Assembly: GCA_964627095.1 (NCBI GenBank) | Contig: CAZVKH010000003.1 | Span: forward strand, 21,248-85,247 | Reading direction: 5' to 3' | Length of the DNA: 64,000 bases | From: an uncultured Candidatus Saccharibacteria bacterium | GTDB lineage: Bacteria; Patescibacteriota; Saccharimonadia; Saccharimonadales; JAUPVS01 | Notes under the pieces: model-generated | What the model was told of the DNA's origin: nothing | The model's input: only the letters and a program-made list of their open reading frames with translations | Database searches by the model: none | Shown here: positions 546 to 64,000 of the stretch, one piece after another | How positions within the stretch are numbered: position 1 is the first letter of the stretch | How the letters are laid out: each line of letters opens with the position of its first letter | Made by a program: the position numbers and the translations under genes

Positions 546-2471
546 TTAATTAAGAACGGCTTTAATGCGACGAATGCCGGCTGAGCTAGCTTCTTCTTTA
601 AGAATCTTGAACTTCTTGCCGTCTTCAAACAGTTGCAAGGTGTGGTCGACATGCGGACCGCCACAGATTTCAAAACTGAAGGGCTTTTTGGCGCCATCGG
701 CAATCATCTTATAAACTTTGACATTGTCGCCATAACGATCACCAAACTGGCCAAGCGCACCCTTTTCTTCGATAGCTACTTTGGTAGGGAATTCTTCGAA
801 GCTAACTTTTAGGTCTTGGCCAATCTGTTCATTGACGATTTTTTCGACTTCGTCAAGTTGCTCACGGGTAACTTTTTCGGGATGAGAAAAGTCAAAGCGC
901 AGACGCTCTTCGGTAATGTTTGAACCGCGCTGAATCACATGGTCACCCAGAACATCACGTAGCGCCTGATACATCAAGTGGGTAGCAGTGTGGTACTTCT
1001 TGTGCTGCATGGTCTGGCCACCCAACCCACCCTTGAAAGTTCCCTTGGTGGCCGTTTGCGAACGTTGGCGCTGTTCTTGCATCTTGGAATCAAATTCTTT
1101 GCGCCAATCTTTGGATAATTCAATGTTTTGCCTGAAAGCCTCTTCGGTACTAAGCTCTACCGGGAAACCGTACGTGTCGTATAGGGTAAAAAGAAAATCG
1201 CCTTTCATTACAAAAGTATTTTTCTTTTCAACAACATTAAATACATCTGCAAGCTCCAATGCCTTTTCAAATTCTCGGAGGCCTTTGCGCAGTGTCTGTC
1301 GGAATATTTTCTCTTCCCTCACAAGAACCTCAATAACTTGGTCGCGCTGCTTGGCGACTTCTGGGTAGTCGTCGTGGTAAAGATCGGTGATAACCGGCAC
1401 AAGGTCGTGCAAGAAGTTTTGCTCGACGCCCAGCTCAAAGGCAAATCGAATTGCCCGCCGAACCATTCGGCGCATCACATAGCCCTGTTCCTTATTGCTT
1501 GGCGTAATGCCATCAACAGCTAAGAAAGTGGCGGCTCGCAAGTGATCGGCAATGACGCGCATGGCATTGGTGTGTGTGCCATAGTCTTTACCCGAAATCT
1601 TTTCGAGCTTCTCGATAATTGGCCACATAATACTGATTTTAAAGACGTCCGGGCTATCAATAGCTGCGGCTGCGATGCGTTCTAAACCACCGCCAAAGTC
1701 AACATTCTGCTTCTTTAAGGGTTCGAAGCCTTTTTGGGTACGCAGATATTGCATGAACACTTGGTTGCCGATTTCCATGAATTGGCCGGAGTCACTAGCG
1801 GGGTGGGCTTTGCCAAAGCCAGCGGCGTGATTTTGGGGACCAAAGTCATAAAAAACTTCGCTGTCTGGGCCACACGGGTCACCGACTGGCGTTTTGTCTA
1901 AGCCACCGGCCCGGCTCCACCAGTTTTCGCCATCATCATAAAAGAAGATGCGTTCACCCGGATTTATGCCGCGTTTATCGCCATCGGCCTGCGAACCAAC
2001 TTCGGCAATCTTGGCATCTATTCCCTTTTCTTTAAAAAGCTTCTGCCAGATTTGAGCCGCTTCGTCGTCACGCGGAATGGCGTGCTCTTTACTACCGATA
2101 AAACAGGTGACATAAATTTTTTGCGGGTCAAGCCCGACAACATCAACCAAGAATTCAAAGAACCAACGAATTTGATCTTCTTTAAAGTAATCGCCCAAAC
2201 TCCAGTTACCTAGCATTTCAAAAAAAGTCGTATGACGATTGTCGCCAACTTCATCGATGTCTTGAGAGCGTAAACAAGTTTGGCTGTTTACTAGCTTTGT
2301 ACCGCCCTGGTGTGATTCGCCCAGCAAATACGGAATGAGCGGTTGCATGCCCGAACCGGTAAATAATGTCGTCGGGTCGTTTTGCGGCACCAAAAGGGCG
2401 CGCGGGATCACCACGTGGCCACGATCCTTGAAGAATTGCAGGTAGGCTTGGCGAATTTGTTGGGCATTCAT
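546..2471 (-). CDS. alaS: Alanine--tRNA ligase, short form ending right after the editing domain
   Basis: MNAQQIRQAYLQFFKDRGH N-terminus and class II core motifs. Editing-domain metal motifs HTATHLM and CGGPHV are present. The ATG at 2471 (M20 of the ORF) fits the conserved N-terminus better than 2528. Confidence 0.9.
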   Translation of the reverse strand: MNAQQIRQAYLQFFKDRGHVVIPRALLVPQNDPTTLFTGSGMQPLIPYLLGESHQGGTKLVNSQTCLRSQDIDEVGDNRHTTFFEMLGNWSLGDYFKEDQIRWFFEFLVDVVGLDPQKIYVTCFIGSKEHAIPRDDEAAQIWQKLFKEKGIDAKIAEVGSQADGDKRGINPGERIFFYDDGENWWSRAGGLDKTPVGDPCGPDSEVFYDFGPQNHAAGFGKAHPASDSGQFMEIGNQVFMQYLRTQKGFEPLKKQNVDFGGGLERIAAAAIDSPDVFKISIMWPIIEKLEKISGKDYGTHTNAMRVIADHLRAATFLAVDGITPSNKEQGYVMRRMVRRAIRFAFELGVEQNFLHDLVPVITDLYHDDYPEVAKQRDQVIEVLVREEKIFRQTLRKGLREFEKALELADVFNVVEKKNTFVMKGDFLFTLYDTYGFPVELSTEEAFRQNIELSKDWRKEFDSKMQEQRQRSQTATKGTFKGGLGGQTMQHKKYHTATHLMYQALRDVLGDHVIQRGSNITEERLRFDFSHPEKVTREQLDEVEKIVNEQIGQDLKVSFEEFPTKVAIEEKGALGQFGDRYGDNVKVYKMIADGAKKPFSFEICGGPHVDHTLQLFEDGKKFKILKEEASSAGIRRIKAVLN

Positions 2472-4083: not shown

Positions 4084-5129
4084 ACTATAATGCCGCCGCC
4101 CACAACTTGTTCACCGCTGTAAAAGACGGCCGACTGACCGGCCGTAATAGCCCGAGCTTCGTCTTGCATAATAACTTTTAGTGGCTTACCAGACTGTAAG
4201 GTGCATTGCACTAAGGGCGCCCGGTAACGGGTGCGCACCTGTAGGTTATCTGCCGCGTTTGGCGCACCGTTAATCCAGTGCACATCAACTAAATTAAGCT
4301 GCTTGTGCCATAGCTTGGCATCATCAAGATTAGTCGTTACGTAAACCTCGTTTAAGTCCATGTCCTTGCCAACTACGTAGTAGGGCATGCCACCGCCAAC
4401 ATTCAGCCCGTGCCGCTGCCCAATGGTATAAAAAATTGCGCCGTCGTGGCTACCCACGACATGTCCGGCTTGATCCTTGATTTGGCCGGGTTTTTGGGCG
4501 CCAAGTTCGTGCAATAAGAATTCTTTAATCCCAACCTTACCCACAAAGCAAATACCTTGGCTGTCTTTTTTGTTAGCCGTCACCAAACCAAACTTCTTGG
4601 CTAGGGCGCGCACCTCGTCTTTGGTTTTAAACTCACCAATTGGCATCAAGGTTTTCTTAAGAGCATCGCTGGTAACTCGGTACAAAAAGTAGGTCTGGTC
4701 TTTGTCGATATTGCGAGCCGTTAGGAGTTGGCCGTCTTTAACGCGGGCATAGTGACCAGTAGCAATTAAATCAGCCCCGTCCGCCAAAGCAGTATCTAAG
4801 AATAGTTTGAACTTAACCTCTTGATTGCACATGATGTCGGGGTTAGGCGTGCGGCCAGCTTGATATTCGGCCACCATGTAGTCAACGACTTTTTGGCGAT
4901 ATTCCTTTTGGAAGTCATACATTTTGAAAGGTATGCCTAGCTGTACGGCAACGCGTTTGGCATCTTGGTAGTCCTCTTTCCAGGGGCAGGCAAAACCAGG
5001 CAAATCTTGGCTCCAGTTCTTCATGTAGACACCAACTACCTCGTAGCCCTGCTCCATTAGCAAAGCCGCCGTGACCGAACTATCGACACCGCCACTCAGG
5101 CCCACATAAACTATCTGCTTCTTTGCCAT
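4080..5129 (-). CDS. mnmA: tRNA-specific 2-thiouridylase MnmA
   Basis: PP-loop VGLSGGVDSSV and typical MnmA length and motifs (GHYAR, CFV). Confidence 0.9.
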   Translation of the reverse strand: MAKKQIVYVGLSGGVDSSVTAALLMEQGYEVVGVYMKNWSQDLPGFACPWKEDYQDAKRVAVQLGIPFKMYDFQKEYRQKVVDYMVAEYQAGRTPNPDIMCNQEVKFKLFLDTALADGADLIATGHYARVKDGQLLTARNIDKDQTYFLYRVTSDALKKTLMPIGEFKTKDEVRALAKKFGLVTANKKDSQGICFVGKVGIKEFLLHELGAQKPGQIKDQAGHVVGSHDGAIFYTIGQRHGLNVGGGMPYYVVGKDMDLNEVYVTTNLDDAKLWHKQLNLVDVHWINGAPNAADNLQVRTRYRAPLVQCTLQSGKPLKVIMQDEARAITAGQSAVFYSGEQVVGGGIIV

Positions 5130-22167: not shown

Positions 22168-22567
22168 TGGTGGAGCTGCCGGGTACCGCCCCCGGGTCCG
22201 CTAGTTTATCTTTGTTAGCCGTCTACAGGTATAGTCTACTTAATTGGTCTTAGCATCGTGGCTGTAAATAGACCAAATACTACGATGAGCAGACTCTTAG
22301 TCTTAGTACCTACTAGGAGTCACTAGCAAGTAAGCAACCAGATGAAATGGCGTTCGTTCAGTCTATCTGGTATCGACTAAAGAACGGCTCGAGTTAAACT
22401 CGGGCTGGTGCGAAAGCAAAGTTGCTAGCGGCAAACAAGTTTGCAACAGCGAGCTTAGCTTCGCGAATAGAAGTTTTTACATCTATTGTGTTTACCCTAT
22501 AACGCTGAGTAAGCGACCTGCGGGATCTAACTGATAAAGTCCAACGTCGAGCTTAAAATTCAGCCCC
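22168..22567 (-). ncRNA. ssrA: tmRNA (ssrA), about 400 nt
   Basis: The minus strand starts GGGGCTGAATTTTAAGCTCGACG and ends GGACCCGGGGGCGGTACCCGGCAGCTCCACCA. The acceptor stem GGGGCUG/CAGCUCC contains the G3:U alanine identity pair. A candidate tag ORF at 22394..22444 encodes ANLFAASNFAFAPARV followed by a stop. Confidence 0.85.
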
Positions 22568-30573: not shown

Positions 30574-31890
30574 CTATTTCGCCTTCTTTAGGCGTGATTT
30601 ATTCTTTAGGGCCTCGACACCCGGCAATTTTTTGCCACTCATCAACTCTAAACTAGCGCCGCCACCGGTTGATACATGGTTAAAGCTATCGGTTAAGCCA
30701 CGGCCTTCCACGTAAGACACAGTGTCGCCTCCGCCGACAATACTGAACGGTCGGTGACCGTACTGACCAAGCATAGACTCCACAATTAGCTCGGTGCAGT
30801 GGGCAAACGGACCAACTGGTCCTAGCCCACCCAAGGGACTAACTTCGGTCACACCCATGGCCCCGTTCCAAATAACGGTTTCGGCCAACTGCATGCCACC
30901 GGCAATGAAGGCACCGGAAAATGGCCCAATATCATAGAGCAGTTCGTTACTTTTAATCTTGCTGGCTTCACGCGGTGGTCGCTTGGGGTAACTTTCGATG
31001 TCGGCAATCATGTGGGTATCCCAGTCGACAATGCGAGTTTTGGCCTTGGGGTCTAGCGATGTAGCCACCACACCGTCTTGAGGCAAATAAAAGATGAAGC
31101 GCTGTTTAGCAGCCTTTTGGCGCGCCATGTCCATAATCTTTTTGGCCAGTGGCACATCTTCCGGTACCACGACACTACTACCGACATCAACACCCTTGGC
31201 TAGCAAAAAGGTGTTAGCCATAGCGCCACCGACTACCAAGAAGTCGGCAATGGCAATGAAGCGTTCCAGGAACTCAATTTTGTCGGCTATCTTGACGCCG
31301 CCGACGATGGCCATAAGTGGTCGCTTGGGGTTAGATATAGCCGCCTCTAGTGTGACCACCTCTTTTTCGAGTAGCAAACCGCTAAAACTAGGTAGATAAT
31401 GCGTAACACCTTCGGTCGAGGTATGAGCCCGGTGGACCACCCCAAAACCATCCTGCACAAAAACGTCACCTAACCGCGCCAGGGCTTCCGAAAAGTGCTT
31501 GTCGTTAGCCTCTTCTTCGGGGTGAAAACGCAGGTTTTCGAGCATCAGCACGTCTTTGGGCTTCATTTGCTGAACAGCCTTTTCGGCTACCGGCCCAATA
31601 CAGTCATCAACAAAAGTTACCGGCTGGCCAAGTAGCTTCTGTAAGTGTTTAGCAACCGGTTTTAGGCTCAAGTGCTTGTCGTACTTATCCTTGGGCCGCC
31701 CCATGTGTGAAATAATGACAACTTTGCAGCCTTGCTTAAGCAAGTATTGAACGGTGGGGACGGACTGGGTCAAACGGTAGTCGCCAGCTATTTGGCCATC
31801 ACCACGAATTGGCACGTTATAATCGGCCCGTAGTAATACGGTTTTGCCTTTTAGCTTAACGTCGCGGATTGTCTGTTTATTAAAACTCAT
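30574..31890 (-). CDS. pgk: Phosphoglycerate kinase (longer than usual, with an internal insertion)
   Basis: RADYNVP, SHMGRP, GGAMANTF and STGGGASLE motifs. Confidence 0.9.
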   Translation of the reverse strand: MSFNKQTIRDVKLKGKTVLLRADYNVPIRGDGQIAGDYRLTQSVPTVQYLLKQGCKVVIISHMGRPKDKYDKHLSLKPVAKHLQKLLGQPVTFVDDCIGPVAEKAVQQMKPKDVLMLENLRFHPEEEANDKHFSEALARLGDVFVQDGFGVVHRAHTSTEGVTHYLPSFSGLLLEKEVVTLEAAISNPKRPLMAIVGGVKIADKIEFLERFIAIADFLVVGGAMANTFLLAKGVDVGSSVVVPEDVPLAKKIMDMARQKAAKQRFIFYLPQDGVVATSLDPKAKTRIVDWDTHMIADIESYPKRPPREASKIKSNELLYDIGPFSGAFIAGGMQLAETVIWNGAMGVTEVSPLGGLGPVGPFAHCTELIVESMLGQYGHRPFSIVGGGDTVSYVEGRGLTDSFNHVSTGGGASLELMSGKKLPGVEALKNKSRLKKAK

Positions 31891-31904
31891 CCCACCCCTA
31901 CCAG

Positions 31905-33335
31905 TTACAGGACCCGCACTTTAATGGTGTCAGTCGTGCCAACCACACCCGGATGCTTGCCCGACGCCGTCACAATAATGTTGCCCTTATTGAGCACCTT
32001 GTTCTGCAACAGCCAGTTGGTTAGTTTAGTGGCCGCCAATGGATCGATTGGTCGTACGTAGGCCTTGGTACCAAACACAATAGCCAGCTGCTGGGCGACG
32101 CGTTTGTCTGGTGTAACAGCGATTAAGGGCATTGCCGGCCGGCGGCTAACAATTTGTAGGGCGGTATTGCCGGTTTGAGTCTCGGCCACAATAGCCGTTG
32201 CCGGAAGATGCTCGGCCAAACCAATAATAGCCTTGCTGACGGCACTCTGAAACGATTTGTGCGGGTGGTCCGGAAAATGCACTGTTAATGGATTATTTTG
32301 TTCGGTATAAGTTGTGACGCGCTTCATTACCCGGACAGCTTCGATGGGATACTGGCCGTTGGCGGTTTCGTCACTGAGCATTACACAGTCGGCGCCTAAG
32401 ATTACGGCAGTGGCGACGTCTGATACTTCGGCCCGGGTTGGTTCCGGTGTTTCGGTCATACTGGCTAACATTTGCGTGGCCACGATGGTTGGCTTGGCTT
32501 GAGCCAGTCCTAAGCCAATAATTCGTCGTTGGACAATTGGCACGGCTTCGGCGGCCGTTTCGATGGCTAAGTCACCGCGCGCCACCATCACCGCATCGGT
32601 TGCCTCAATAATTTCTTCTAGGTTGTCGATTGACGCCTTGGTCTCGATTTTGGCAATAATTCGGGCTGTACTACCTAATGATTTGAGACGTTTGCGTAAT
32701 TGTTCAATATCATCGGCCGTTTGCACGAAACTCAGGGCAACGTAGTCGATGTCACGCTCCGAACCAAAGGCAATGTCTTTTTTGTCTTTAGCGGTAATGA
32801 TATCACCGGCGAAATCGGTATCTGGTAGGTTAATGCCCTTACGCTGAATCAAAATACCAGCGTTTTTGGCTTCGGCATGCACCACACCATCCTTAACGCT
32901 GTTCACGATAGTGCGAATTTTGCCATCATACAAAAATAGCCGTTCACCTCGTTTCACTTTCTTGCTCAGGTCATACTGGGTCGGAATAATACCAGACCGC
33001 TCAATGTCAGCCTGATAGCCAAACTGCAAAGACTGGCCCTTCTGGACGTTAATAATACCCTCGAAGTCGCCTAAACGGATTTTGGGACCTTGCAGGTCTT
33101 GAATAATGGCGACCGGCTTGCCATAGGCCTTAGAAGCTTTGCGGATCCAAGCGATCTGCTCATCACGCTCTTCGTAGTTACCGTGACTAAAATTCAAACG
33201 TAGGCCGTTTACACCAGCCGAAATTAACTCGGCAATGGCATCGTAGCTATTAGTAGCCGGGCCCACTGTAGCAATTATTTTGGTGCGCTTAAATTTAGAA
33301 AGCGGCACCCGCGGTGTCTGATTAGTTACATCCAT
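31905..33335 (-). CDS. pyk: Pyruvate kinase
   Basis: TKIIATVGPA, NFSHG, MVARGDL and TQML.SM motifs. Confidence 0.9.
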   Translation of the reverse strand: MDVTNQTPRVPLSKFKRTKIIATVGPATNSYDAIAELISAGVNGLRLNFSHGNYEERDEQIAWIRKASKAYGKPVAIIQDLQGPKIRLGDFEGIINVQKGQSLQFGYQADIERSGIIPTQYDLSKKVKRGERLFLYDGKIRTIVNSVKDGVVHAEAKNAGILIQRKGINLPDTDFAGDIITAKDKKDIAFGSERDIDYVALSFVQTADDIEQLRKRLKSLGSTARIIAKIETKASIDNLEEIIEATDAVMVARGDLAIETAAEAVPIVQRRIIGLGLAQAKPTIVATQMLASMTETPEPTRAEVSDVATAVILGADCVMLSDETANGQYPIEAVRVMKRVTTYTEQNNPLTVHFPDHPHKSFQSAVSKAIIGLAEHLPATAIVAETQTGNTALQIVSRRPAMPLIAVTPDKRVAQQLAIVFGTKAYVRPIDPLAATKLTNWLLQNKVLNKGNIIVTASGKHPGVVGTTDTIKVRVL

Positions 33336-33415
33336 TACATTAATTTTACTTGCTTATGGTTACAAAGCCAACTTTGTTATAATAAATGTAAAGCAATCAA
33401 ACCAAACACCATACT

Positions 33416-34747
33416 ATGCCCAAAAATATTTTCCAAAAAAGCGCCGAAGCGCCAGCCAAAATCCTCGATAAGAGCATCGAGCTAGGGCAACATCTTGGTC
33501 AGAAGATAAATCCGGTGTCTTATGCCGACATCATGTTCCGCAAAGACAAGCGGACTCGTCTATTCCTAGATTCGTCGCCCGAAAAGCGCATCGAGATTAT
33601 TCGTTCGGTTACGGTACCCGTTAAGCGTGATATTTTAGCCAAGATACCCGAAGAGGAAGTCGTTAGGCTAATCGAAGGCCTAGACCCCGACGAGGCCACC
33701 GATGTATTACAGCTAATGACCAAGCGCAAACGCGAAAAGGTTTTGCTACTTCTTAGTCAGGATTTAAAGGACTCTTTGTCGACACTACTAGAGTTCGATG
33801 CCGAGACCGCCGCCGGTTTAATGACCCTGGACTACATTCAAGTCAACGATACCGAAAGCGTGTCCGATGTCGCCCACCATTTTAGGCAACACGAAACCCG
33901 CACCGGCCGACCGCCGGTGATTTTAGTTTTTAAAGACGGTAAATTATGTGGTTTCTTGCCTGGCCATGAACTTGGCTTAGCAGCGAAAAGCGAGCTGATT
34001 AGCAAATATGTTAAGCGCATCCCTAGTATTTCTTACGCCGCCACCCACAAAGACGTGGAACGGGCCTTCCGCGCTCACCCCCACTCTAAAATCGCCGTAC
34101 TGAACGATTCTGGTAATGTGGTCGGTATTATTTATTCAGACGATATGCTGCAATTGCTGGAAGACCGTCAAGCCTCGTCTTTGTATAACTTTGCCGGTAT
34201 TAGCCAAGAAGAAAGCGTTACCGACTCGGCCAAGATGAAAATTAAGAATCGCTACCGCTGGTTAATTATTAACCTGGGGACAGCCTTTCTGGCCGCCTTT
34301 ACGGTTGGTATGTTCGAGGACACCCTCAACAAGTACGTTTTGCTAGCCGTCTACATGCCCATCGTGGCTGGCATGGGCGGTAACGCCGCCACCCAAACTC
34401 TGGCTGTTCAAGTAAGGGGTATTTCTTTAAAGCAGATTGAGCTCAAAACTGTCTGGAAAACACTGCGCAACGAGCTCGGAGCTGGCCTGGTCAATGGCCT
34501 AATTAACGGTGTCTTGGTAGCCGCCGTTGTCATACTGGTAAACCACGACTATAAAATCGCCTTTATCTTGGGCATCGCCATGGTAATTAACTTGGTGGTA
34601 GCTTCTTTCTTTGGAACAATTGTGCCGCTAATTATGGCCAAACTGGGCAAAGACCCAGCGGCTTCGGCTACCATCTTTATTACCACTGCCACCGACGTTC
34701 TAGGCTTCTTAGCCTTCCTAGGCTTGGCCACAATAGTATTAGGCTAG
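33416..34747 (+). CDS. mgtE: Magnesium transporter MgtE
   Basis: MgtE N-domain, CBS pair and a 5-TM C-terminus with GMGGNAATQ and TTATDVLGF. Confidence 0.9.
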   Translation: MPKNIFQKSAEAPAKILDKSIELGQHLGQKINPVSYADIMFRKDKRTRLFLDSSPEKRIEIIRSVTVPVKRDILAKIPEEEVVRLIEGLDPDEATDVLQLMTKRKREKVLLLLSQDLKDSLSTLLEFDAETAAGLMTLDYIQVNDTESVSDVAHHFRQHETRTGRPPVILVFKDGKLCGFLPGHELGLAAKSELISKYVKRIPSISYAATHKDVERAFRAHPHSKIAVLNDSGNVVGIIYSDDMLQLLEDRQASSLYNFAGISQEESVTDSAKMKIKNRYRWLIINLGTAFLAAFTVGMFEDTLNKYVLLAVYMPIVAGMGGNAATQTLAVQVRGISLKQIELKTVWKTLRNELGAGLVNGLINGVLVAAVVILVNHDYKIAFILGIAMVINLVVASFFGTIVPLIMAKLGKDPAASATIFITTATDVLGFLAFLGLATIVLG

Positions 34748-34751
34748 ATAC

Positions 34752-35066
34752 CTAGCTATCGAATTCTTCGTAGCCACCGCTATCAAGGTAGCCAGCTGGC
34801 CATGGCCCAAAGGCATACTGCATGGCCCGACCCGATGCAATTATCATTGCAAAACCAATTTTTCTAAATCGCTCGCGCCGATCGGCAACAACCAAACTCC
34901 TCTGAAACTCCTGTGAAGCCTGAGCCTCTTCTTGCCTAATCCGCTCCAATTCACCCTCGGCAGCTGCTCCTAGATACGCTTCGGCTTGAAGAACCAGCAA
35001 ACGGGTCTGTTCTTCAACGGAAATTTCATAATCCTCGGGGTGGACATTGATGTTTGGGTCTCTCAT
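34752..35066 (-). CDS. Hypothetical protein
   Basis: ORF only. Confidence 0.35.
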   Translation of the reverse strand: MRDPNINVHPEDYEISVEEQTRLLVLQAEAYLGAAAEGELERIRQEEAQASQEFQRSLVVADRRERFRKIGFAMIIASGRAMQYAFGPWPAGYLDSGGYEEFDS

Positions 35067-35090
35067 AATTTAGTGCATTGTAAGCAAACA

Positions 35091-35114
35091 AAAAGCCCAA
35101 GGCAAGCTTAGGCG
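35091..35114 (-). terminator. Probable rho-independent terminator after 35134..35970
   Basis: Imperfect hairpin GCCcAAG-gcaag-CTTaGGC with a T-run on the minus strand. Confidence 0.4.
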
Positions 35115-35133
35115 TTTTGAGTCTTCTTATTAA

Positions 35134-35970
35134 CTAGTTTATAGGCTCAAGGACACTTATACCGTACGTCTTCCAGACTCCAGAAACATTAGCCACGTTT
35201 ATACGACTCACATAGGGTTTATTCTGATTACTCTTATAACTTAAAGAAAAAACAGTGGCTTTTCCGCTAAATACAGTGGCGTCGACGCTATAGGCAAATT
35301 CTACTTTGCAATCAGATGGCTTGAGCGATCTAAATGACTTGTCGACTTCGGCTGGGTCATTTAGGGGGCTAGTATTTGAGTACTCTTTAGGAACCCAACT
35401 GGTTAATCCGGCTGAACCCCCGGCCAAAGCGGTTTTAACAGAGCTTTCGACCTGTTTGAGTGCCCCAGGGTCAATTTGCTTGGCATAGGTTTCGTTTGAC
35501 ACACAAGTAAACCCTGAGCTAGTAGTTTGAGCAGCAGACTTTTTAGAACTAGCCACTGGAGCCGGTGCCGGCTTAGGCGTGGACTGGGCAGTCGTAGGAG
35601 CTGGCGCGGTCGCTGCCGAAGGGCTGGCAGCAGATTCAGCCGCTATATTATCTGTAGCCGCTTTCTTATCGGTACTCTGAACTTTTTCGTTACTACCACT
35701 TCCCCTAACTGTATCTTGTTGAACCTTATAAACAAGACCCAAACCAACCACAATAACCAATAAAACAACAGCTGCCAGAACGAAATATTTTTTCGGGAAG
35801 CGTCGGTTTGGCTGCTCGGTCTGTATTATTGGTGCTGTCACATTATTTTCGGGCACAGCGTAACTAACCGGCTGCTGGGCGGGAATGATTGGCGGCCCTT
35901 CGGTAACTGGTTGTTGATAGGTTGGATTATTGTCAGGGTTCTGGGTTGGTGGTTGGTTATTTGGCTGCAT
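35134..35970 (-). CDS. Bitopic membrane protein with a Pro/Gln-rich N-terminus and an extracellular Ala/Pro/Ser linker plus a globular domain
   Basis: The composition and a single TM segment (YFVLAAVVLLVIVVGLGLV) are the only evidence. Confidence 0.5.
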   Translation of the reverse strand: MQPNNQPPTQNPDNNPTYQQPVTEGPPIIPAQQPVSYAVPENNVTAPIIQTEQPNRRFPKKYFVLAAVVLLVIVVGLGLVYKVQQDTVRGSGSNEKVQSTDKKAATDNIAAESAASPSAATAPAPTTAQSTPKPAPAPVASSKKSAAQTTSSGFTCVSNETYAKQIDPGALKQVESSVKTALAGGSAGLTSWVPKEYSNTSPLNDPAEVDKSFRSLKPSDCKVEFAYSVDATVFSGKATVFSLSYKSNQNKPYVSRINVANVSGVWKTYGISVLEPIN

Positions 35971-35973
35971 ATA

Positions 35974-36447
35974 CTACCAGGTGCACTCCGGTAAAACCTT
36001 GATATGGACTGTTTCAAGAACATACTGAACGCCATCCTTGGTTAACCCAGCGGCAGTGAAACCAGTAGTTGGTATTTCTACTTCTATGGCATTAACTTCA
36101 TCACCCCACCACTGCGTGACAGACTGTTTATTAACACCCTGCAATGTGCTTTCTATGCCCCTAGAACCGACTGGCTTTTTATAAATGTACATTGCCTTAG
36201 TTGGCTTACCGGGTGTTGTATTTTTGCAAGCCTTTATGGCCGTTCCCTTACCGTCATCGTAGATTGGCGTAATAAATAAGTTAGCAGCCTTGGCCTTAAG
36301 ATCATTGGCACGCCATTTGTTATAACCAAAGGAAGTTAACCCAATAACGACCACGCCAGTAGCAATAACTAGCAGAAGAGTCCTCCGTCGGCTGTTATTA
36401 CCAAGCCTGCCAACATTATGCGATGAAGTATTTGAAGGTTTATTCAT
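35974..36447 (-). CDS. Signal-anchored small extracellular protein, paralog of 36472..36984
   Basis: N-terminal TM anchor. It shares the WWG(D/G)EV-x-A-x-E(V/I) block and a C-terminal P-x-C motif with the neighbouring gene. Confidence 0.5.
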   Translation of the reverse strand: MNKPSNTSSHNVGRLGNNSRRRTLLLVIATGVVVIGLTSFGYNKWRANDLKAKAANLFITPIYDDGKGTAIKACKNTTPGKPTKAMYIYKKPVGSRGIESTLQGVNKQSVTQWWGDEVNAIEVEIPTTGFTAAGLTKDGVQYVLETVHIKVLPECTW

Positions 36448-36471
36448 ATATACATACTAAGTATCTTCGAC

Positions 36472-36984
36472 TCAGCCATTACAATTTGGCACACCTACAC
36501 GATAGACTGTATCAAGAAACATATACTTGCCATCGGACGGCCTATACAAGCCCACTGCCACTGATGTGGCGGAATCGATTTCTCTTGCCTGAACCTCTCC
36601 GCCCCACCACGACTGATTACGGTCAAACTCTACCGAATTACCCGCCGACGCAACCCCACTCCATAACGTATACTCGGTATCCTTACCAAAGATTATTACA
36701 ATCTTGTTGCCCCGCATACAGGCGACTATCCTCATCGTCCTACCATCGCCATCGCCGTCCGGAGCCTCCCAAATCTGCTTAACATTGACGCTGCCAGCTT
36801 TAGCTTTCAGCTTATTTGTTGTGGTTTTATCAAGGATATACGCCCCAATAACTGTTGCTATAAATACAATAACTAATACAGCTAGTATTTTTATTAACAG
36901 TGATGTCTTTTTTGCACTGCTGACGTTAACTGCTTTTGATTGTGATTTTTGCTTGTTAGAAGGTTTTTTTGATTTTAGTGACAT
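36472..36984 (-). CDS. Signal-anchored small extracellular protein, paralog of 35974..36447
   Basis: The same architecture as its neighbour. The ATG at 36984 (MSLKSKKPSNKQ) is preferred over the ORF-track start at 37059. Confidence 0.5.
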   Translation of the reverse strand: MSLKSKKPSNKQKSQSKAVNVSSAKKTSLLIKILAVLVIVFIATVIGAYILDKTTTNKLKAKAGSVNVKQIWEAPDGDGDGRTMRIVACMRGNKIVIIFGKDTEYTLWSGVASAGNSVEFDRNQSWWGGEVQAREIDSATSVAVGLYRPSDGKYMFLDTVYRVGVPNCNG

Positions 36985-37057
36985 TATTTTGCCTATTTTT
37001 ATATTTTGATTATAGCTTTGATTGTATTCCGTATTAGGGCTCCGTGTCAAACTGACC

Positions 37058-37085
37058 AAAATAAAATACCCCAGTCAAGCTGGGG
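37058..37085 (-). terminator. Hairpin plus T-run immediately downstream (on the minus strand) of the tRNA-Glu 3'-end remnant, read as the orphaned tRNA terminator
   Basis: CCCCAG-tcaag-CTGGGG at 37069-37085, followed on the minus strand by tattttatttt. No gene ends here in the present arrangement. Confidence 0.55.
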
Positions 37086-37094
37086 AACTTTATT

Positions 37095-37111
37095 TGGTGA
37101 GCTCTAGGGGA
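37095..37111 (-). repeat. Degenerate copy of the tRNA-Glu 3' end (candidate att-site repeat, left junction)
   Basis: TGGTGAgCTCtAGGGGA against TGGTGAcCTCaAGGGGA at 60776-60792. That is 15 of 17 identical in the same orientation. Weaker gapped similarity continues to about 37133 (GAACaCCCTAT against GAACCCCTAT). Confidence 0.6.
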
Positions 37112-37193
37112 TTTTTCTGGAACACCCTATACAAAGGTATTCTAGATTTAGACGCTAAGCTTGTCGAGCTTGGAATAGATGAGGAGATGCAAG

Positions 37194-37679
37194 ATGTTTA
37201 AACTTCTCCGCAAGAAAACTGTTCCAGGGCAAGATCTGCTAGACTCACAGCTATTCGATGAGAGTACTTTTTATAAGGCTTTTTCCAGAGATCTTAAAAG
37301 CGCTAGGAGCAACGTCATTATCGAAAGCCCATACCTGACCGAAAAAAGAGCCCTTCAGTTAGCTAGAACGTTAAAACGCCTAAAGAAGAACCGAGTTAAA
37401 GTCAGAGTTAATACTAGAGAACCAAGGCATCACGACAAGCACCTTGAGATACAAGCTTGGAAAGCCATTAAGGTTTTGCGAAAATCTGGCGTTAAGGTTT
37501 ATGTTTGTAGTGACCTGAGGCACAGAAAGTTGGCGATCATAGATAACCAAATACTTTGGGATGGCAGCCTGAACATACTCTCGCAGTCCAATAGTAAAGA
37601 GGTTATGCGCAGAACAGCCTCGGCTACTCTATGCAAGCAAATGGCGTGTTTTACAAGATTAAATAATAGGTATTGGTGA
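37194..37679 (+). CDS. Single-HKD phospholipase D family protein (Nuc-like nuclease)
   Basis: HKD motif HRKLAIIDNQILWDGSLNILSQS. GAGGAG lies 7 nt before the ATG at 37194. Confidence 0.7.
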   Translation: MFKLLRKKTVPGQDLLDSQLFDESTFYKAFSRDLKSARSNVIIESPYLTEKRALQLARTLKRLKKNRVKVRVNTREPRHHDKHLEIQAWKAIKVLRKSGVKVYVCSDLRHRKLAIIDNQILWDGSLNILSQSNSKEVMRRTASATLCKQMACFTRLNNRYW

Positions 37680-58966: not shown

Positions 58967-59116
58967 ATGGCTAGAACAAAAGGTGCGAAGAACAAGCAAA
59001 AGATACCACCCGTTCTTACGTTATCTCAGGAAGAACGCGTAGAACTCCTAGCCAAAATTCTTGTTGAGATTGTTGATGAGGAGCGACGGAGAGGCGAGCT
59101 ATGCAAGACTCCGTAA
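58967..59116 (+). CDS. Small basic/acidic protein (49 aa) upstream of and overlapping the recombinase start
   Basis: Manual reading gives MARTKGAKNKQKIPPVLTLSQEERVELLAKILVEIVDEERRRGELCKTP. GAGGG lies 5 nt before the ATG. It is too short for the ORF track. Confidence 0.4.
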   Translation: MARTKGAKNKQKIPPVLTLSQEERVELLAKILVEIVDEERRRGELCKTP

Positions 59117-60816
59117 ACGCTATAAACGCGGTTGCCGCTATACGGGTGTCTACTACCAAGCAAGGTACTGACGGTGATTCTCCAGAAGCCCAAAAGGAAC
59201 AGATCGAGCGATTTGCTGCCAATAAAGGGCTGGTGATTAAAAAGTTCTTTGTCTTTTTGGAATCAGCCAGTAAAGAGCAGCAGCCGATGCAGGAGGCTAT
59301 AGACTACTGTAAGGATCCAAAAAACGGCATCCAACTATTCATTATTAAGTCGATTGATCGATTTACCCGTGGTGGCTCGTTGTCATATGATCTGCTTAAG
59401 AATCAGCTGGAAAGTAGCCAAGTACGACTGATAGATATTTACGGGGTTATTAGCTCCGAACAAGTTAACACCCTTGAACACTTAGGCCTTGAGTACAAGT
59501 GGAGCGTGTATAGCCCTAGCAAGAAGTCTGAGATCTTAGAAGCAGAACGGTCGAAAGATGAACTACGCGACATTATGAGCCGTATGATCGGCGCTGAAAT
59601 CCGCTATACCCGCATGGGCTACTGGATGCGCCAACCACCCTATGGTTTTGTGAGCGAGAAAATAGAGACCAAGAACGGCAAAAGAACTATTCTTAAGCCC
59701 CACCCAGAGGAATCCAAATACATGATTAAAATGTATGAATTGCGGGCCGAAAGGCTGCTAAACGATCGGCAGATCGTCGATAAGCTCAACGATGCTGGCT
59801 ACCGATCAAGATTACGGTATTATCGCAGCAAACAAGACCGCACACGTATCGTAAGTAAACGTGGAGGTACGCCGTTAACTGTTAAAGCTATGCAAAAATT
59901 TCTTCGAAACCCGATATATGCTGGCATTAACGTCGAGAAGTGGACAAACGGAGAGCCTATTAAGTGTGCATTTGATGGACTAGTGCCTATTGATCTGTTC
60001 AATAAAGCCAACCGAGGTAAGCGCTATATCACTATGGATGATCAGGGCGAGTATATTATTCAGAACAAAAAACCACCTAAGCACCTAACAAATAAGGGTA
60101 TTAGAAATGCTGACTTCCCGTACCGAAAGTTTATTTTATGCCCTCAGTGCAACAGTCCACTACTAGGGAGTGCCTCAACGGGTAAGTCAGGAAAACGCTA
60201 TCCGGCATATCACTGCAGTAACCACGGCCACTACTTCCGTGTTCCTAAAGCCGAAATGGAAGCCAGAATATTAGACTTCATTAGCAACCTACAGGTCGAT
60301 CAGGAGCAGATAGAGCGAGTTATGTCCGTAATTGAGTCTGAGTACAGCAAACGCCAAGAAACCATACAGGAGGAGCTGAACAGCCTTGATGGGCGTATAC
60401 AGGCACTGAAAGTCGAGGCAGAGGCTACCGTTCACAAAATCAAATTGCTTACTAACCAAACAGCACTTAAATATATGGAGGAGGAGCTTATGAAAATCGA
60501 AGAGCAAATAATCGCTCTAGAGGCTCAAAAAATCAAAAAAGCGGACGAAAGACCTGTAGAAATACAGCCAATACTGAAACGAGTACGATACTTCCTGGAA
60601 CACCTCGACGAACTACTTGTAAAACAGATTGATCCAGTCAGGAAAGCTCAGTTTTTCGGTGCTATTTTTGACAAACCCCCAACTTACGACGAAATAAATC
60701 CTGGAACACAAAAAACACCCTTTTTTACAGGGGTGAATCCGATATTCAAACTTGCTTCCGCTCAAAAATCTCTTATGGTGACCTCAAGGGGAATCGAACC
60801 CCTATTGCCGGGATGA
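59101..60816 (+). CDS. Large serine recombinase (integrase)
   Basis: Resolvase-type N-terminus AAIRVSTTKQ...SIDRFTRGG, a recombinase domain, the Zn-ribbon CPQCNSPL...YHCSNHGH and a C-terminal coiled coil. The last 41 nt overlap the tRNA-Glu gene on the opposite strand. Confidence 0.85.
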   Translation: MQDSVNAINAVAAIRVSTTKQGTDGDSPEAQKEQIERFAANKGLVIKKFFVFLESASKEQQPMQEAIDYCKDPKNGIQLFIIKSIDRFTRGGSLSYDLLKNQLESSQVRLIDIYGVISSEQVNTLEHLGLEYKWSVYSPSKKSEILEAERSKDELRDIMSRMIGAEIRYTRMGYWMRQPPYGFVSEKIETKNGKRTILKPHPEESKYMIKMYELRAERLLNDRQIVDKLNDAGYRSRLRYYRSKQDRTRIVSKRGGTPLTVKAMQKFLRNPIYAGINVEKWTNGEPIKCAFDGLVPIDLFNKANRGKRYITMDDQGEYIIQNKKPPKHLTNKGIRNADFPYRKFILCPQCNSPLLGSASTGKSGKRYPAYHCSNHGHYFRVPKAEMEARILDFISNLQVDQEQIERVMSVIESEYSKRQETIQEELNSLDGRIQALKVEAEATVHKIKLLTNQTALKYMEEELMKIEEQIIALEAQKIKKADERPVEIQPILKRVRYFLEHLDELLVKQIDPVRKAQFFGAIFDKPPTYDEINPGTQKTPFFTGVNPIFKLASAQKSLMVTSRGIEPLLPG

Positions 60817-60850
60817 AAACCCGGTGTCCTAACCGTTAGACGATGAGGCC
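60776..60850 (-). tRNA. tRNA-Glu (anticodon UUC), CCA encoded
   Basis: The minus strand reads GGCCTCATCGTCTAACGGTTAGGACACCGGGTTTTCATCCCGGCAATAGGGGTTCGATTCCCCTTGAGGTCACCA. The full 75-nt cloverleaf folds by hand (7/4/5/5 bp stems, T-loop TTCGATT). Confidence 0.9.
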
Positions 60851-60980
60851 TTGGCGCAGACATAAATGATTTGTGCCGGCATGAATCATTTATTGTCGAG
60901 CACAAGGGTGTATATGCCGGAGGCATATGAGGCCACATGTGCAGTTGCTGCAACCGCAAAATTGTACCATAACAGAGGCG

Positions 60981-61020
60981 AAAAAGAAACCCCCTGGTTA
61001 GAGGGGGCTTCTTGTTTTGG
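60981..61020. terminator. Bidirectional rho-independent terminator (serves the LPXTG protein gene on the minus strand)
   Basis: CCCCCT-ggttag-AGGGGG (60990-61007), flanked by aaaaagaaa on the left and cttcttgtttt on the right. Confidence 0.6.
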
Positions 61021-61109
61021 AACCGAGAGTGAGCGGTCAGTCATTGCTCATTTCTGTGGTTAGCTTAGCATAAAAGGTATGTTTTGGCTAGCCACTTGTC
61101 CACAGGCAA

Positions 61110-62222
61110 TTACTGACGACTAAGGCGTCGTGCCATGAAGACTCGGTAAGCCATGGCACCGGCGACAGTGGCAGCAGCAAATACTGCGGCTACACTACCT
61201 GTACCAGTCGCTGGCAAGGTAGTTACGGTTACAGGAGTTGTTGGTGGAGGTGTCACAATAGTTGGTGGAACACCTGACTTAAATGTGACCTGCTTAGTAC
61301 AAGCGGTCGCGGTCTTCCATTCGGTTCGACCATCAGCATAGCGAACCTGAACCTTAGTAACGATGGTATAAGTGCCATCTTTAGCATAGGTGTGAGTATC
61401 GGTTTGCTTGTTCGACTTAGTACCATCACCAAAGTCAATTTCGTAACCAACAATGGTGGCATTGTTAGTTTGGCCAGTGACGGTAACAGTAACCTTGCGG
61501 TTATCGGCTGTAGTTAGGTCGGCAACTTTACATGAACCTTCCGATACAACGGGTGGAGGAGTTACCTTCTTGACCTGAACATCCAGCGTTACATAAACGC
61601 GTTGGTCCCAACAGCCCCAAACATTACCGTCTGGAGTCATGGTGCCAATCGGCGCGCCGGTAGTAACAATGCTGTCACTGACAGCCTGGGTACCACTTGG
61701 CTTGCTGTACTGCTTTGCAGAACCAGCTACATAGCTCATTGTTACCTGTGAACCGTTGGTACAGTTAATGCGCATGTCGTCGGCTACAGTACCAGCGTTG
61801 CTGGCAGTAATGGTAGCGTTAGGCACAAAGTTAGTACCAGTTCCAGTTACGCCACCAACCTTAACCTTAACGTCATGAGCCACACTTGGACCGCTACCGC
61901 CATTGTTGAGGTCTTGTGAAGCACCGTTGTGTACATACACACGAAGCGTAAAGCGAGTACCGTCTTGGCAGGCGGTGTCGACTACGTTCTTTGAGTCACC
62001 AGTGTCACCGGCTACCTTGCCGCGCAAGAAGTCACTTTCGTCGCCATTGTACGGCGTACCAGTAAAAACGTTAAAGGCCGGGTAAGGTGCTGGTGGAGTG
62101 TTTTCGCCGGTATAAGGAATGCTCAAAGCATTAACCTTCATCGGCGCCAAGATCATACCAACCATGAGCAGACTAGCTGCTGCAGTGCTGATTTTCTTTG
62201 ATAGTTGCGTAAATATAGTCAT
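61110..62222 (-). CDS. LPXTG-anchored surface protein with a PKD-like domain
   Basis: N-terminal signal peptide. The PKD-like segment is EIDFGDGTKSNKQTDTHTYAKDGTYTIVTKV. The C-terminus has LPATG, a hydrophobic stretch and RRLSRQ. Confidence 0.7.
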   Translation of the reverse strand: MTIFTQLSKKISTAAASLLMVGMILAPMKVNALSIPYTGENTPPAPYPAFNVFTGTPYNGDESDFLRGKVAGDTGDSKNVVDTACQDGTRFTLRVYVHNGASQDLNNGGSGPSVAHDVKVKVGGVTGTGTNFVPNATITASNAGTVADDMRINCTNGSQVTMSYVAGSAKQYSKPSGTQAVSDSIVTTGAPIGTMTPDGNVWGCWDQRVYVTLDVQVKKVTPPPVVSEGSCKVADLTTADNRKVTVTVTGQTNNATIVGYEIDFGDGTKSNKQTDTHTYAKDGTYTIVTKVQVRYADGRTEWKTATACTKQVTFKSGVPPTIVTPPPTTPVTVTTLPATGTGSVAAVFAAATVAGAMAYRVFMARRLSRQ

Positions 62223-62242
62223 AGTATTTTCCTTTATGCGCC

Positions 62243-63520
62243 TTAGTTAGGAGCGTCTTCGTCCTTAGGTTCTTCACCCTTAGGGATTGTGGTTACTGGA
62301 GGCTTCACGGTTGTTGGAGGATATACCGGAGGCTTGCTGGTGTCTGGAGGACCTTCGTTAGGCGTTGTATCTGGAGGACCTTCGTTAGGCGTTGTCTGAG
62401 GAGGAGTTGTCTCTTCTGGACCGCCCGATGGGGTTGTACCAGTTGTGCCACAGCCACCGCCACACTGACCGCCAGGACCACCACCTTGGCCACCAGCACC
62501 TTGACCGGTACCGTTGCCAGAGGTGTTACTACCGCTACCACATGAGCCATTACAGCCATTTTCTTTACCATTGTGTTTATCTTTTTCGCTACCACCACCT
62601 TCGCCTTCGCTATCACCAGAACCACCGCCGGTGTTACCTTCTTGGTCTTGAGCTTCTGGTTCAGGCTGCTGTTCGTTTAAGCCAATATTTTCGAGGAGAT
62701 AAATTTGGCCGGTTTCTTTGTCAAAGACAAAAATCTGATTAGTGATATCGCCGTTATCGCCAACAGTGCGAATGATAAAGACGGTTTCTTTAGCAAAGTT
62801 GACGTCGGTTGGAGCAACTTCGGCTCTTACGATTTCGCCATCTTGAACACCAACTACCTTTAGGTAAGTGCCTTTGACCTCTTCTGAGTTAAGAGCGGCC
62901 GCAACTTGAATGTAAGCCGAAAGCTTGTCGGCATCTTCTAGGGCGTCAGCTGGGGTTTCAACATAGTGTTGAGCCTGCTCGTCGACGCTTGCAAAGACAT
63001 CAAAGCCACGGGCTTCGGCAGCGCCTTGGCCGTTTAAGCTCAATACAGAAGTCTTGATAACTGCCAGCGTGATAGCCGAGTTACAAGCCACACCTTCGCC
63101 GCCAAACAAATATTCGTTTAACGATGGAGTGTCTTTTAGAGTCTCGGCTGGCTCGCGGTGTAAGTCACCAGGAGTCTGCACGTTTAATGAAGCTTCGTAA
63201 GCACCATTAGTGAGGGCTTCGCCAGCACAGGCTTCAAAGTCGCCTTCTTGTGCCAAAGCTACGTCGGGTAGTGAACTAGCCGATCCGCTTTCGCCGCCAG
63301 TCATAATATTGGCTGCCACAACGCTACCGCTAGCAAACACAGCTAAACCAGCAAATGCTGCCAGGCCTTTTTTTACACGACCACTCGTTAAAATGGCCGT
63401 AGCCTGTTCTGGAGCGCCATAAACAGGTGCGCCAGCTGGCTCACCTACAAGGGGTGGACGAGCATGTTCAGCAGTTGGTGGAGCTGCTGGCATACCTTGG
63501 TCCCAATTAATCTCAGTCAT
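62243..63520 (-). CDS. Membrane-anchored or secreted protein with a Gly/Cys-rich and Pro/Thr-rich C-terminal region
   Basis: A TM/signal segment sits near residue 55. The low-complexity tail contains GGGSGDSEGEGGGS, CNGSCGSGS and GGQCGGGCG, with the tandem TTPNEGPPD repeat. Confidence 0.5.
   Translation of the reverse strand: MTEINWDQGMPAAPPTAEHARPPLVGEPAGAPVYGAPEQATAILTSGRVKKGLAAFAGLAVFASGSVVAANIMTGGESGSASSLPDVALAQEGDFEACAGEALTNGAYEASLNVQTPGDLHREPAETLKDTPSLNEYLFGGEGVACNSAITLAVIKTSVLSLNGQGAAEARGFDVFASVDEQAQHYVETPADALEDADKLSAYIQVAAALNSEEVKGTYLKVVGVQDGEIVRAEVAPTDVNFAKETVFIIRTVGDNGDITNQIFVFDKETGQIYLLENIGLNEQQPEPEAQDQEGNTGGGSGDSEGEGGGSEKDKHNGKENGCNGSCGSGSNTSGNGTGQGAGGQGGGPGGQCGGGCGTTGTTPSGGPEETTPPQTTPNEGPPDTTPNEGPPDTSKPPVYPPTTVKPPVTTIPKGEEPKDEDAPN
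62343..62396. repeat. 27-bp tandem duplication (2 copies, 1 mismatch) inside 62243..63520
   Basis: tctggaggaccttcgttaggcgttgta occurs twice and encodes TTPNEGPPD twice on the minus strand. Confidence 0.75.
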
Positions 63521-63622
63521 ACCTTATCTCCTCAGATAAATTTTACTATCACAATTTACCATAAAAGTTATCAGATGTCAATATCTTATGACATACTGGG
63601 CGTAAAGCACAAGCGCTATGCG

Positions 63623-64000
63623 CTACTTAACGAGGAGTTTGGACTTAGGGAAGCTAAAGCCAAAGGTGCTGCCCTTGTTCTCTTCGCTATGGAAGATAAT
63701 GGCACCGCCTTGGGCAACCACCACTTTTTGAGCCATAAATAAGCCTAGACCGGTTCCGTCAGGGCGAGCCTTCTTGGCGTTACCGGCTCGATAGAACTTA
63801 TTAAACAAGTGGTGCTGCTCGTTCTTGGGCACACCAATCCCGTTGTCGACTACAGTTAATTCAACGCTTTCTGGTTTGTCTTCTAGATTTACGTTGATCG
63901 TACCACCGCTTGGTGTGTAATAAATGGCATTGTCGGTAAAGTTCATGATCACCTGACGAATCTTGGTTTCATCAAGATTAAGTGATGGAAAGCCCTTCGG
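63623..64000 (-). CDS. Sensor histidine kinase, C-terminal HATPase_c part (N-terminus outside the window)
   Basis: N-box NFTDNAIYYT, G1 box DNGIGV, F box FNKFYR and G2 box GTGLGL. The reading frame stays open to the window end. Confidence 0.8.
   Translation of the reverse strand, partial: PKGFPSLNLDETKIRQVIMNFTDNAIYYTPSGGTINVNLEDKPESVELTVVDNGIGVPKNEQHHLFNKFYRAGNAKKARPDGTGLGLFMAQKVVVAQGGAIIFHSEENKGSTFGFSFPKSKLLVK

Follow-up and report, generated by a model that had tools for sequence, protein, structure and literature searches.

A probable hybrid attachment site of a conjugative element with a large serine recombinase at a Saccharibacteria tRNA-Glu gene

A short tRNA-like sequence and the hairpin beside it, near position 37,100 of a 64,000-nucleotide stretch of a Saccharibacteria contig (the window), are best explained as the hybrid attL of a 23.7-kb conjugative element that carries a large serine recombinase and is inserted at the 3' end of tRNA-Glu(UUC); the probability of this reading is put at about 0.85. 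In the proposed mechanism, strand exchange would have taken place inside the 6-bp TCACCA that is common to the attP of the element and the attB of the host. Exchange within this core would therefore have left the tRNA with its full sequence (60776-60850), and the bidirectional terminator of the tRNA would have moved 23.7 kb away, to 37069-37085. The 11 bases TCCCCTAGAGC did not come from this tRNA-Glu; they form the P' arm of the element, which resembles the acceptor/T-arm half-site of attB that the same integrase would bind. The features concerned are the following.

35134-35970, 35974-36447 and 36472-36984, minus strand: three paralogous genes for small membrane-anchored proteins, absent from L026
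37058-37094, minus strand: T1, predicted displaced native terminator of tRNA-Glu, with the stem CCCCAG/CTGGGG at 37069-37085 and complementary A- and T-tracts
37095-37100, minus strand: common core TCACCA (tRNA positions 71-76), from the comparison of attB, attR, and attL and from L147
37097-37201, plus strand: putative orphaned segment for the integrase C-terminal tail (VSSRGFFWNTLYKGILDLDAKLVELGIDEEMQDV, then a stop), from a conserved frame and fused homologues
37101-37125, plus strand: element-borne P' arm GCTCTAGGGGATTTTTCTGGAAC, the same in L147
37101-60781, no strand: integrated element of 23,681 bp, from Pfam content, GC, and its absence from L060 and L026
37194-37679, plus strand: first element gene, PLD-family nuclease-like (Pfam PLDc_2, E = 9e-15)
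59101-60816, plus strand: large serine recombinase in its integrated form, 571 aa, with Pfam Resolvase and Recombinase domains
60710-60735, minus strand: element-supplied hairpin and U-run, candidate replacement terminator, about 45 nt 3' of the tRNA end
60776-60850, minus strand: intact tRNA-Glu(UUC), the only tRNA in the window (ARAGORN; Rfam tRNA, 63.9 bits)

At the far junction, the 17-mer TCCCCTAGAGCTCACCA occupies 37095-37111 on the minus strand and agrees at 15 of 17 positions with the tRNA-Glu 3' end (60776-60792), whose last 17 bases are TCCCCTTGAGGTCACCA. The two differing bases, at tRNA positions 66 and 70, would stand opposite A7 and C3 of the present 5' strand GGCCTCA, the two places at which an earlier note on this DNA had expected the pairing to break. 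The 17-mer is followed on its 3' side by AATAAAGTT, the CCCCAG/CTGGGG hairpin (37069-37085), and a T-run, and no minus-strand gene of the window ends at 37069-37111; coordinates and scans thus bear out the layout that the note had described. Folding of the hairpin region, which had been proposed as a check, gave -23.3 kcal/mol, whereas shuffles averaged -11.7 (z = -4.8) and none of 200 was equally stable. T-runs flank the hairpin on both strands, and the terminator scan found it terminator-like in both directions, because complementary A- and T-tracts flank the stem. The nearest minus-strand gene begins downstream of the hairpin, from a promoter-like TTGACA-18-TACAAT at 37050-37021. The hairpin lies upstream of this site and therefore outside the transcript of the neighboring gene, to which, according to the note, it might have belonged instead. 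On the plus strand, an open frame begins within the 17-mer and reaches the start of the first element gene; no sigma-70-like site was found between the hairpin and the PLD start.

Relatives without the element document the state before insertion. A scan of reference genomes with the 25-mer from the tRNA-Glu 3' end gave 52 loci, nearly all of them Saccharibacteria/Saccharimonadales or unnamed (one is titled Desulfotalea), and two further loci, L060 and L058, were reached through homologues of the 36472-36984 gene. L060 aligns to the window at 61383..60776 and 37111..36572. The two window flanks correspond to L060 62..678 and 662..1192, and their overlap is exactly the 17 bases. Its tRNA-Glu leads at once into ATCTAAATGCCCCAGCCTGTCTGGGGTTTTTAGAT, beyond which come a conserved promoter-like TTGACA-18-TACAAT and then the gene orthologous to 36472-36984. 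L060 is hence an unoccupied attB, the outer flanks of the window joined at the core, and with both flanks meeting on the 17 bases an insertion into tRNA-Glu, with this region as its far junction, is well supported. L058 has the same gene order as L060 down to the MgtE gene and is also free of the element. The closest empty-site relative, L026, aligns to the window at 64000..60776 and then skips to 35119..30737; it confirms the tRNA-side boundary at 60776, where the alignments to L026 and to L060 both stop exactly.

T1-type hairpins stand directly 3' of tRNA-Glu in L060, L058, L010, L009, L023, L003, and others. Across the regions downstream of tRNA-Glu in 14 Saccharibacteria loci, including the far junction of the window, a 14-pair structure is paired in 98% of cells, with compensatory double changes at 10 of the 14 pairs; none of 500 shuffles was as high, and slid-pairing controls were 30-60% paired. 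GC-rich stem, U-run, and compensatory change are those of an intrinsic (Rho-independent) terminator at the level of sequence, and it is called here a predicted terminator. Since element-free L060 reads tRNA-Glu, a hairpin of the same type, and the same neighbor gene, the hairpin at 37069-37085 is recognized as the original terminator of the tRNA, predicted to be native in lineages with the three small genes. This part of the earlier interpretation is retained. The accompanying expectation that the hairpin follows the tRNA directly in relatives holds for L060 and L058 but not for L026, which has another terminator.

L026 lacks not only the element but also the three genes within 35120-37094 that are present in the window, L058, and L060. 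Its tRNA-Glu terminator is not T1 but the hairpin seen in the window at 35091-35120 (T2), and it differs because the three genes are missing. The segment is bounded by similar terminator hairpins, 37069-37085 and about 35091-35113, and by its sequence L026 differs through an indel between the two. The ancestral state is inferred from the more distant L060 and L058, because L026 is without T1 and the adjoining genes. The 170-aa protein among the three-gene set has only 3 homologues in a collection of 5.8 billion proteins. Two same-strain contigs (L053 and L054; SRR13208899) break and overlap on exactly the 30-mer 35091-35120, which is unique in the window despite these breaks; a population variant joined elsewhere, e.g., an L026-like deletion, may be responsible.

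Other traces of traffic at this site were seen in relatives. In L058, an insert of about 170 bp with its own hairpin stands between tRNA-Glu and T1 (226-410), flanked by CCTTGAGGTCACCA, a perfect 14-bp repeat of the tRNA end; it may be the relic of an earlier occupant of the tRNA-Glu site. The insert also holds a piece of a hairpin-rich conserved sequence, ending ..ACCA, that converges on tRNA-Glu from just beyond its terminator in many Saccharibacteria and shares the bidirectional tRNA-Glu terminator (L003, L010, L009, L041, L086 at 4400-4520, L013, L025, and L049). This converging sequence is absent from the window, ARAGORN found no tRNA in it (L086 only), and Rfam gave no credible family (L003, L009, L010, L041, and L086).

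Comparison of the junctions separates host from element to the base. The attB of L060 reads ..GAGG TCACCA ATCT.., the attR of the window (core at 60776-60781) ..GAGG TCACCA TAAG.., and its attL ..GAGC TCACCA AATA... The base 5' of the core is G in the host and C in the element, and the base 3' of it is A in the host and T in the element. TCACCA is the only part of the 17-mer common to the host attB and the element attP, and the crossover is therefore placed inside it. The locus L147 carries an element 92% identical to that of the window, with the identical 17-mer, both differences included, and another host flank. From the core inward 99 of 100 bases agree, against 27 of 60 outside, where the hairpin is a different one; the similarity begins at the TCACCA hexamer. 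In L091, the arm GCCCTAGGGGATTTAGATGGAAC adjoins an unrelated hairpin, the L091 sequence there being GCCCTAGGGGATTT. The first 11 bases of the P' arm (37101-37125) are the tRNA-like part of the 17-mer, with both differences. Because L147 carries the identical arm and L091 a near-identical one, each beside a different hairpin, and complete relatives follow the same pattern, these 11 bases TCCCCTAGAGC are assigned to the element. The earlier note had preferred a decayed original tRNA end, and this has to be given up, the 11 bases being element DNA that is identical in L147 and lies in a conserved frame; its second option, the attP of a serine recombinase mimicking the tRNA end, is the one upheld by the L147 arm and by an integrase with Resolvase and Recombinase domains.

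The same architecture recurs in elements at other sites. Other elements have different tRNA-like arms at the P' position, several with TGGAAC 17 nt after the core. The ends of L086 (tRNA-Glu) have only TGGTGACCC in common, a core of 9 bp, and L137 and L117, whose integrases are 47-48% identical, are in tRNA-Val with 7-bp cores; these three and L091 all have short cores of 6-9 bp followed by non-identical tRNA-like arms. The dyad symmetry of the reconstructed window attP is best when centered on TC (GA on the plus strand), with 13 of 24 positions, and is ambiguous for L086, L141, L066, and both attB sites; the crossover dinucleotide may be TC, on the hint of this symmetry. L147 also contains, at 60-242, upstream of its far junction and beside another hairpin, a second, near-perfect fragment of a tRNA-Glu 3' end, which agrees with TTTTGGTGACCTCAAGGGGAATCGA at 24 of 25 bases. 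Some 150 bp of unrelated sequence come next, and the arrangement suggests repeated use or decay of elements at the site.

The DNA between the junctions has a GC content of 43-46%, vs. 47-51% in the flanks. Its PLD gene heads a plus-strand block that runs on into type IV secretion genes (to 46509). Pfam matches comprise a pilin, TrbL/VirB6-like and VirB4-like proteins, a coupling protein, and an M23 peptidase; the cargo includes a copper ATPase with DUF305 and DUF3105 proteins, an S24 repressor-like gene, and an NgoFVII-type restriction-modification system with a Z1-domain gene. VirB4, the coupling protein, VirB6/TrbL, and the pilin, together with the integrase at the tRNA end, provide the type IV secretion set and the recombinase expected of an integrative conjugative element. 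The relaxase candidate is a Replic_Relax protein, matched at 24.0 bits and thus below the 25.3-bit cut-off, homologues of which adjoin the integrase in relatives. No tyrosine recombinase (Phage_integrase) was matched by Pfam among the 18 larger element ORFs scanned. The PLD gene has 3308 homologues. In a set of 80 metagenome loci, it is mostly the last gene before the far junction, and most of these loci repeat the succession of host hairpin, short core, element-specific tRNA-like arm, and PLD. Elsewhere in the window, a tmRNA at 22168-22567 (minus strand) was matched by Rfam (63.2 bits, full-length model); ARAGORN, also capable of detecting tmRNAs, reported none.

The integrase gives the junction its particular character. 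Besides matches to PF00239 at 36.5 bits and PF07508 at 23.2 bits, both over the cut-offs, it shows the RVST motif, a zinc ribbon rich in Cys, and a long stretch of helix; homologues are listed with PF13408. It reads antisense through the crossover into the tRNA and ends ..MVTSRGIEPLLPG before the stop. The last 11 codons after the core and the stop are antisense tRNA-Glu (..MV TSRGIEPLLPG, stop), the TGA (60814-60816) being the complement of U35-C36-A37 in the anticodon loop. At the far junction, the frame 37097-37201 (plus strand) has a stop that overlaps the PLD start (ATGTTTAA). Of the 31 related loci in which the PLD start is well placed, 29 keep this frame open over 90 nt or more, as against 1 and 0 for the other two frames, and in 28 its stop lies at position +5 of the PLD gene start. 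The peptide pattern WN.L..L..L..KL..LG is kept across loci while the DNA varies. When the P arm of the window is joined to the P' arm, a continuous integrase of 593 aa results, ending ..KSLMVSSRGFFWNTLYKGILDLDAKLVELGIDEEMQDV, of which the integrated form keeps 560 residues and all recognized domains contiguous.

Some homologues carry the tail as predicted from this joint. The 593-aa query returned at least 1696 homologues, and in the best 120 of at least 1696 homologue clusters 106 had tRNA-antisense ends, 13 bore the tail, and 1 had neither. One tail-bearing example, P0129, ends ..LVSSASRTWNTLYPDLISLSDKLGELGIEEYFDV, fused in frame. The integrase-tail ORF is contiguous in L066, a decayed copy with a contiguous junction, and in L141-L146, and in L141-L145 the tail-bearing integrase stands directly before a PLD or Mrr nuclease module. 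L146 (1-19217) is a tandem array of an element of about 9 kb (PLD, reverse transcriptase, Replic_Relax, and tail-bearing integrase) and a type IV secretion element with Fic/VbhA, the former abutting the latter precisely at its far junction, the PLD end. The P' arm mimics a tRNA arm, and attL may therefore accept further elements, as in L146. In a structure model of P0129 (pTM 0.34), the tail forms a helix at a pLDDT of about 65-71 after a disordered linker, with long helices at 401-482; the model gives no reliable docking of the tail, which has no known domain.

These sequences place the putative attachment site inside the integrase ORF, and integration would therefore swap the C-terminus of the integrase. 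In the excised or tandem (attP) state, 37097-37201 would be the in-frame C-terminal tail overlapping the PLD start, and integration would exchange the 33 residues of the tail for 11 that are encoded antisense to the tRNA. This exchange may influence the activity or the directionality of the integrase. Integrase, PLD, and type IV secretion genes lie on one strand with no sigma-70-like site between the hairpin and PLD, so that excision may re-couple transcription of the integrase to the PLD/type IV secretion block. In the circle, attP would read GCTCTAGGGGA after the core and not CCTCAAGGGGA, with the junction k-mer CTCTTATGGTGAGCTCTAGGGGATTTTTC; the attB junction k-mer would be CCCCTTGAGGTCACCAAATAAAGTTCCCCAG, and the tRNA-Glu of the empty site would not end in ...TAGAGCTCACCA. 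Neither an excised circle or attP junction of the window element nor the empty site of the exact strain was found. The same-strain contigs (L053-L057), 100% identical by exact-protein look-up of flanking genes, contain only the integrated form, and a scan of viral contigs for the attP-type pattern found nothing.

On the tRNA side, the element may bring a substitute for the terminator that it displaced. The hairpin at 60710-60735, antisense to the integrase motif KTPFFTGVNP, belongs to a pattern CACCCC-N8-GGGGTG with a U-run that is kept in L029, L005, L043, L047, and L086. The copy in the window has 5 stem pairs only and folds no better than shuffles (z = -0.6), and the terminator scan of the window did not flag it; the idea of a replacement terminator therefore rests on conservation in relatives. 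This hairpin, strong in relatives and weak in the window, may now terminate the tRNA. The conserved integrase motif (Q)KTPLFTGVNP coincides with the antisense hairpin and U-run (window 60705-60740), and this stretch may therefore be constrained as both protein and RNA. Several genomes carry both a UUC and a CUC gene for tRNA-Glu, the 3' ends of which are identical and offer the same attB, including the pairs L005/L028, L006/L012, and L031/L046; the same-strain contigs L056 and L057 break at 60821 within the tRNA, perhaps because of such duplicate 3' ends. Upstream of tRNA-Glu, the gene at 61110-62222 (minus strand) codes for a surface protein that has a PKD domain and a sortase-like LPATG motif, and its homologues (28-97% identity) adjoin tRNA-Glu likewise in many Saccharibacteria loci.

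Several other readings of the far junction have to be weighed against the hybrid attL. The 17-mer could be what was once the 3' end of tRNA-Glu, pushed aside by an element arriving with a copy of its own and altered since by two unselected mutations; this is the usual picture for tyrosine-integrase islands, and it would account for 15 of 17 matching bases standing directly before the native terminator. It is contradicted by L147, where the identical 17-mer with both changes stands at an unrelated flank, and by the near-identical arm of L091. Moreover, the changed bases belong to the conserved open frame (SSRG..) that continues the integrase at attP-type junctions, and a serine recombinase needs a short core only, complete relatives having cores of 7-9 bp. 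The decayed end is accordingly rejected as most improbable. Slighter still is the chance that the likeness to a tRNA end arose by accident beside an unrelated hairpin. The match, 17 bases with 2 mismatches, is short, and the region is AT-rich; against this, only 0.12 matches at up to 3 mismatches are expected in the window, 2 mismatches were attained in no more than 1 of 100 shuffles, the site is exactly where L060 synteny resumes, and the layout recurs in dozens of loci. Accident is rejected on the synteny with L060.

The true end of the island could also be sought at 35120, with the 17-mer and hairpin internal and the three small membrane-anchored genes (35134-37059) as cargo. L026 does join tRNA-Glu directly to the sequence at window 35119, GC is lowest (41%) in 36-38 kb, and the three genes have no homologue in the 52 tRNA-Glu loci. 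The orthologous genes nevertheless follow tRNA-Glu and T1 directly in the element-free L060 and L058, neither core nor tRNA-like sequence is present at 35120, the similarity to the L147 element stops at the core and goes no further out, and a deletion or duplication between the similar hairpins T1 and T2 explains L026. An end at 35120 is thus very unlikely, and is rejected on the L060/L058 synteny, the missing core, and the L147 boundary. A better, if still unlikely, alternative concerns the frame between the core and PLD, which might be a small gene in its own right or encode a leader peptide, for instance a regulator or a directionality factor, rather than the integrase C-terminus. In-frame TTG and GTG codons occur in the core, gene callers annotate it as a product of its own, of 48 aa in L148 and of 38 aa in L146, where the contig end truncates it, and the segment stays intact in integrated elements though detached from the integrase. 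Its N-terminal limit, however, is the crossover core in elements targeting different tRNAs, and upstream of it lies host DNA that differs from site to site, so that neither a start codon nor a ribosome-binding site is conserved there. The 13 database integrases with the segment fused in frame also argue for a tail, although one role would not preclude the other.

As a junction, the site is unremarkable; what is unusual is the arrangement of the integrase family, a variation on known systems. A literature search for serine-integrase elements of Saccharibacteria found no paper describing this family, which, by its predicted members, is large and resides mostly in tRNA genes, a preference uncommon for serine integrases. 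The hybrid attL fixes the ends of the element to the base (37101-60781), and the empty sites together with many independent loci document a serine-integrase family that routinely uses tRNA genes. As the integrase ORF crosses its own attachment site, a role of the swapped tail in directionality or regulation is directly testable. Saccharibacteria are hard to manipulate genetically, and the integrase, with a short attB in a conserved tRNA-Glu and its attP, is a candidate genetic tool for them. A wider proposal, possible but rather doubtful, is that in this mostly Saccharibacteria, tRNA-targeting family with attP in the ORF the tail swap and the uncoupling act together, so that the state of the element would set both the form of the recombinase and the expression of transfer. 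If true, the element would have a built-in switch for directionality and transfer, and would be a bacterial, serine-type counterpart of the archaeal self-disrupting integrases.

The window integrase shares its Resolvase and Recombinase domains, zinc ribbon, and coiled coil, as well as an att site beside its gene, with phiC31, Bxb1, A118, and TnpX/Tn5397-type systems. Adjacent integrase with its domains, short core shared by attP and attB, hybrid half-site junctions, and unoccupied attB are those of phiC31/Bxb1-type att sites. In contrast to these systems, the target is a tRNA 3' end, and attP is inside the integrase ORF with a change of its C-terminus. In a 2020 survey, 14 of 297 serine integrases used tRNA or tmRNA genes, vs. 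44.5% of tyrosine integrases; the survey called such use previously unreported and treated it as rare and unproven (PMC7192596). Insertion at a tRNA 3' end that leaves the tRNA intact, an adjacent integrase, and a far tRNA-like repeat with a displaced terminator are also features of P4, HPI, and ICEclc-type islands. Unlike them, the window element shows no tyrosine recombinase among its larger ORFs and has a serine recombinase beside the tRNA, and its repeat is inexact: of the 15 of 17 matching bases, 6 contiguous ones are shared and the rest are mimicry.

The possible link between excision and transfer recalls Tn916, the transfer genes of which are expressed only after circularization, according to the statement in PMC5812530 that cites Celli and Trieu-Cuot (1998). 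As there, integrase and transfer block lie at the two ends of the element and are read from one strand, and transcription of a circle could cross the joint; the putative coupling in the window is read from gene order and overlapping stop and start codons. SSV-type 'suicidal' integrases have the recombination site within the integrase gene, which is altered by integration; such self-altering integrases were described in a 2021 review as archaea-only and as tyrosine recombinases (PMC8371274). The recombination site of the window is likewise inside the integrase ORF. Unlike the SSV type, the window enzyme is a bacterial serine integrase, and where the SSV gene is split in two, that of the window would swap its last 33 residues for 11 and keep the catalytic and DNA-binding domains intact. 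In mycobacteriophage BPs and its relatives, attP is also in a coding sequence, and integration changes the C-terminus and the behavior of the product (PMC4557955). The gene affected in BPs is the repressor and its integrase a tyrosine recombinase, whereas in the window the integrase itself is affected, with a putative consequence; the integration-dependent immunity of BPs is the nearest bacterial analogy to the window integrase.
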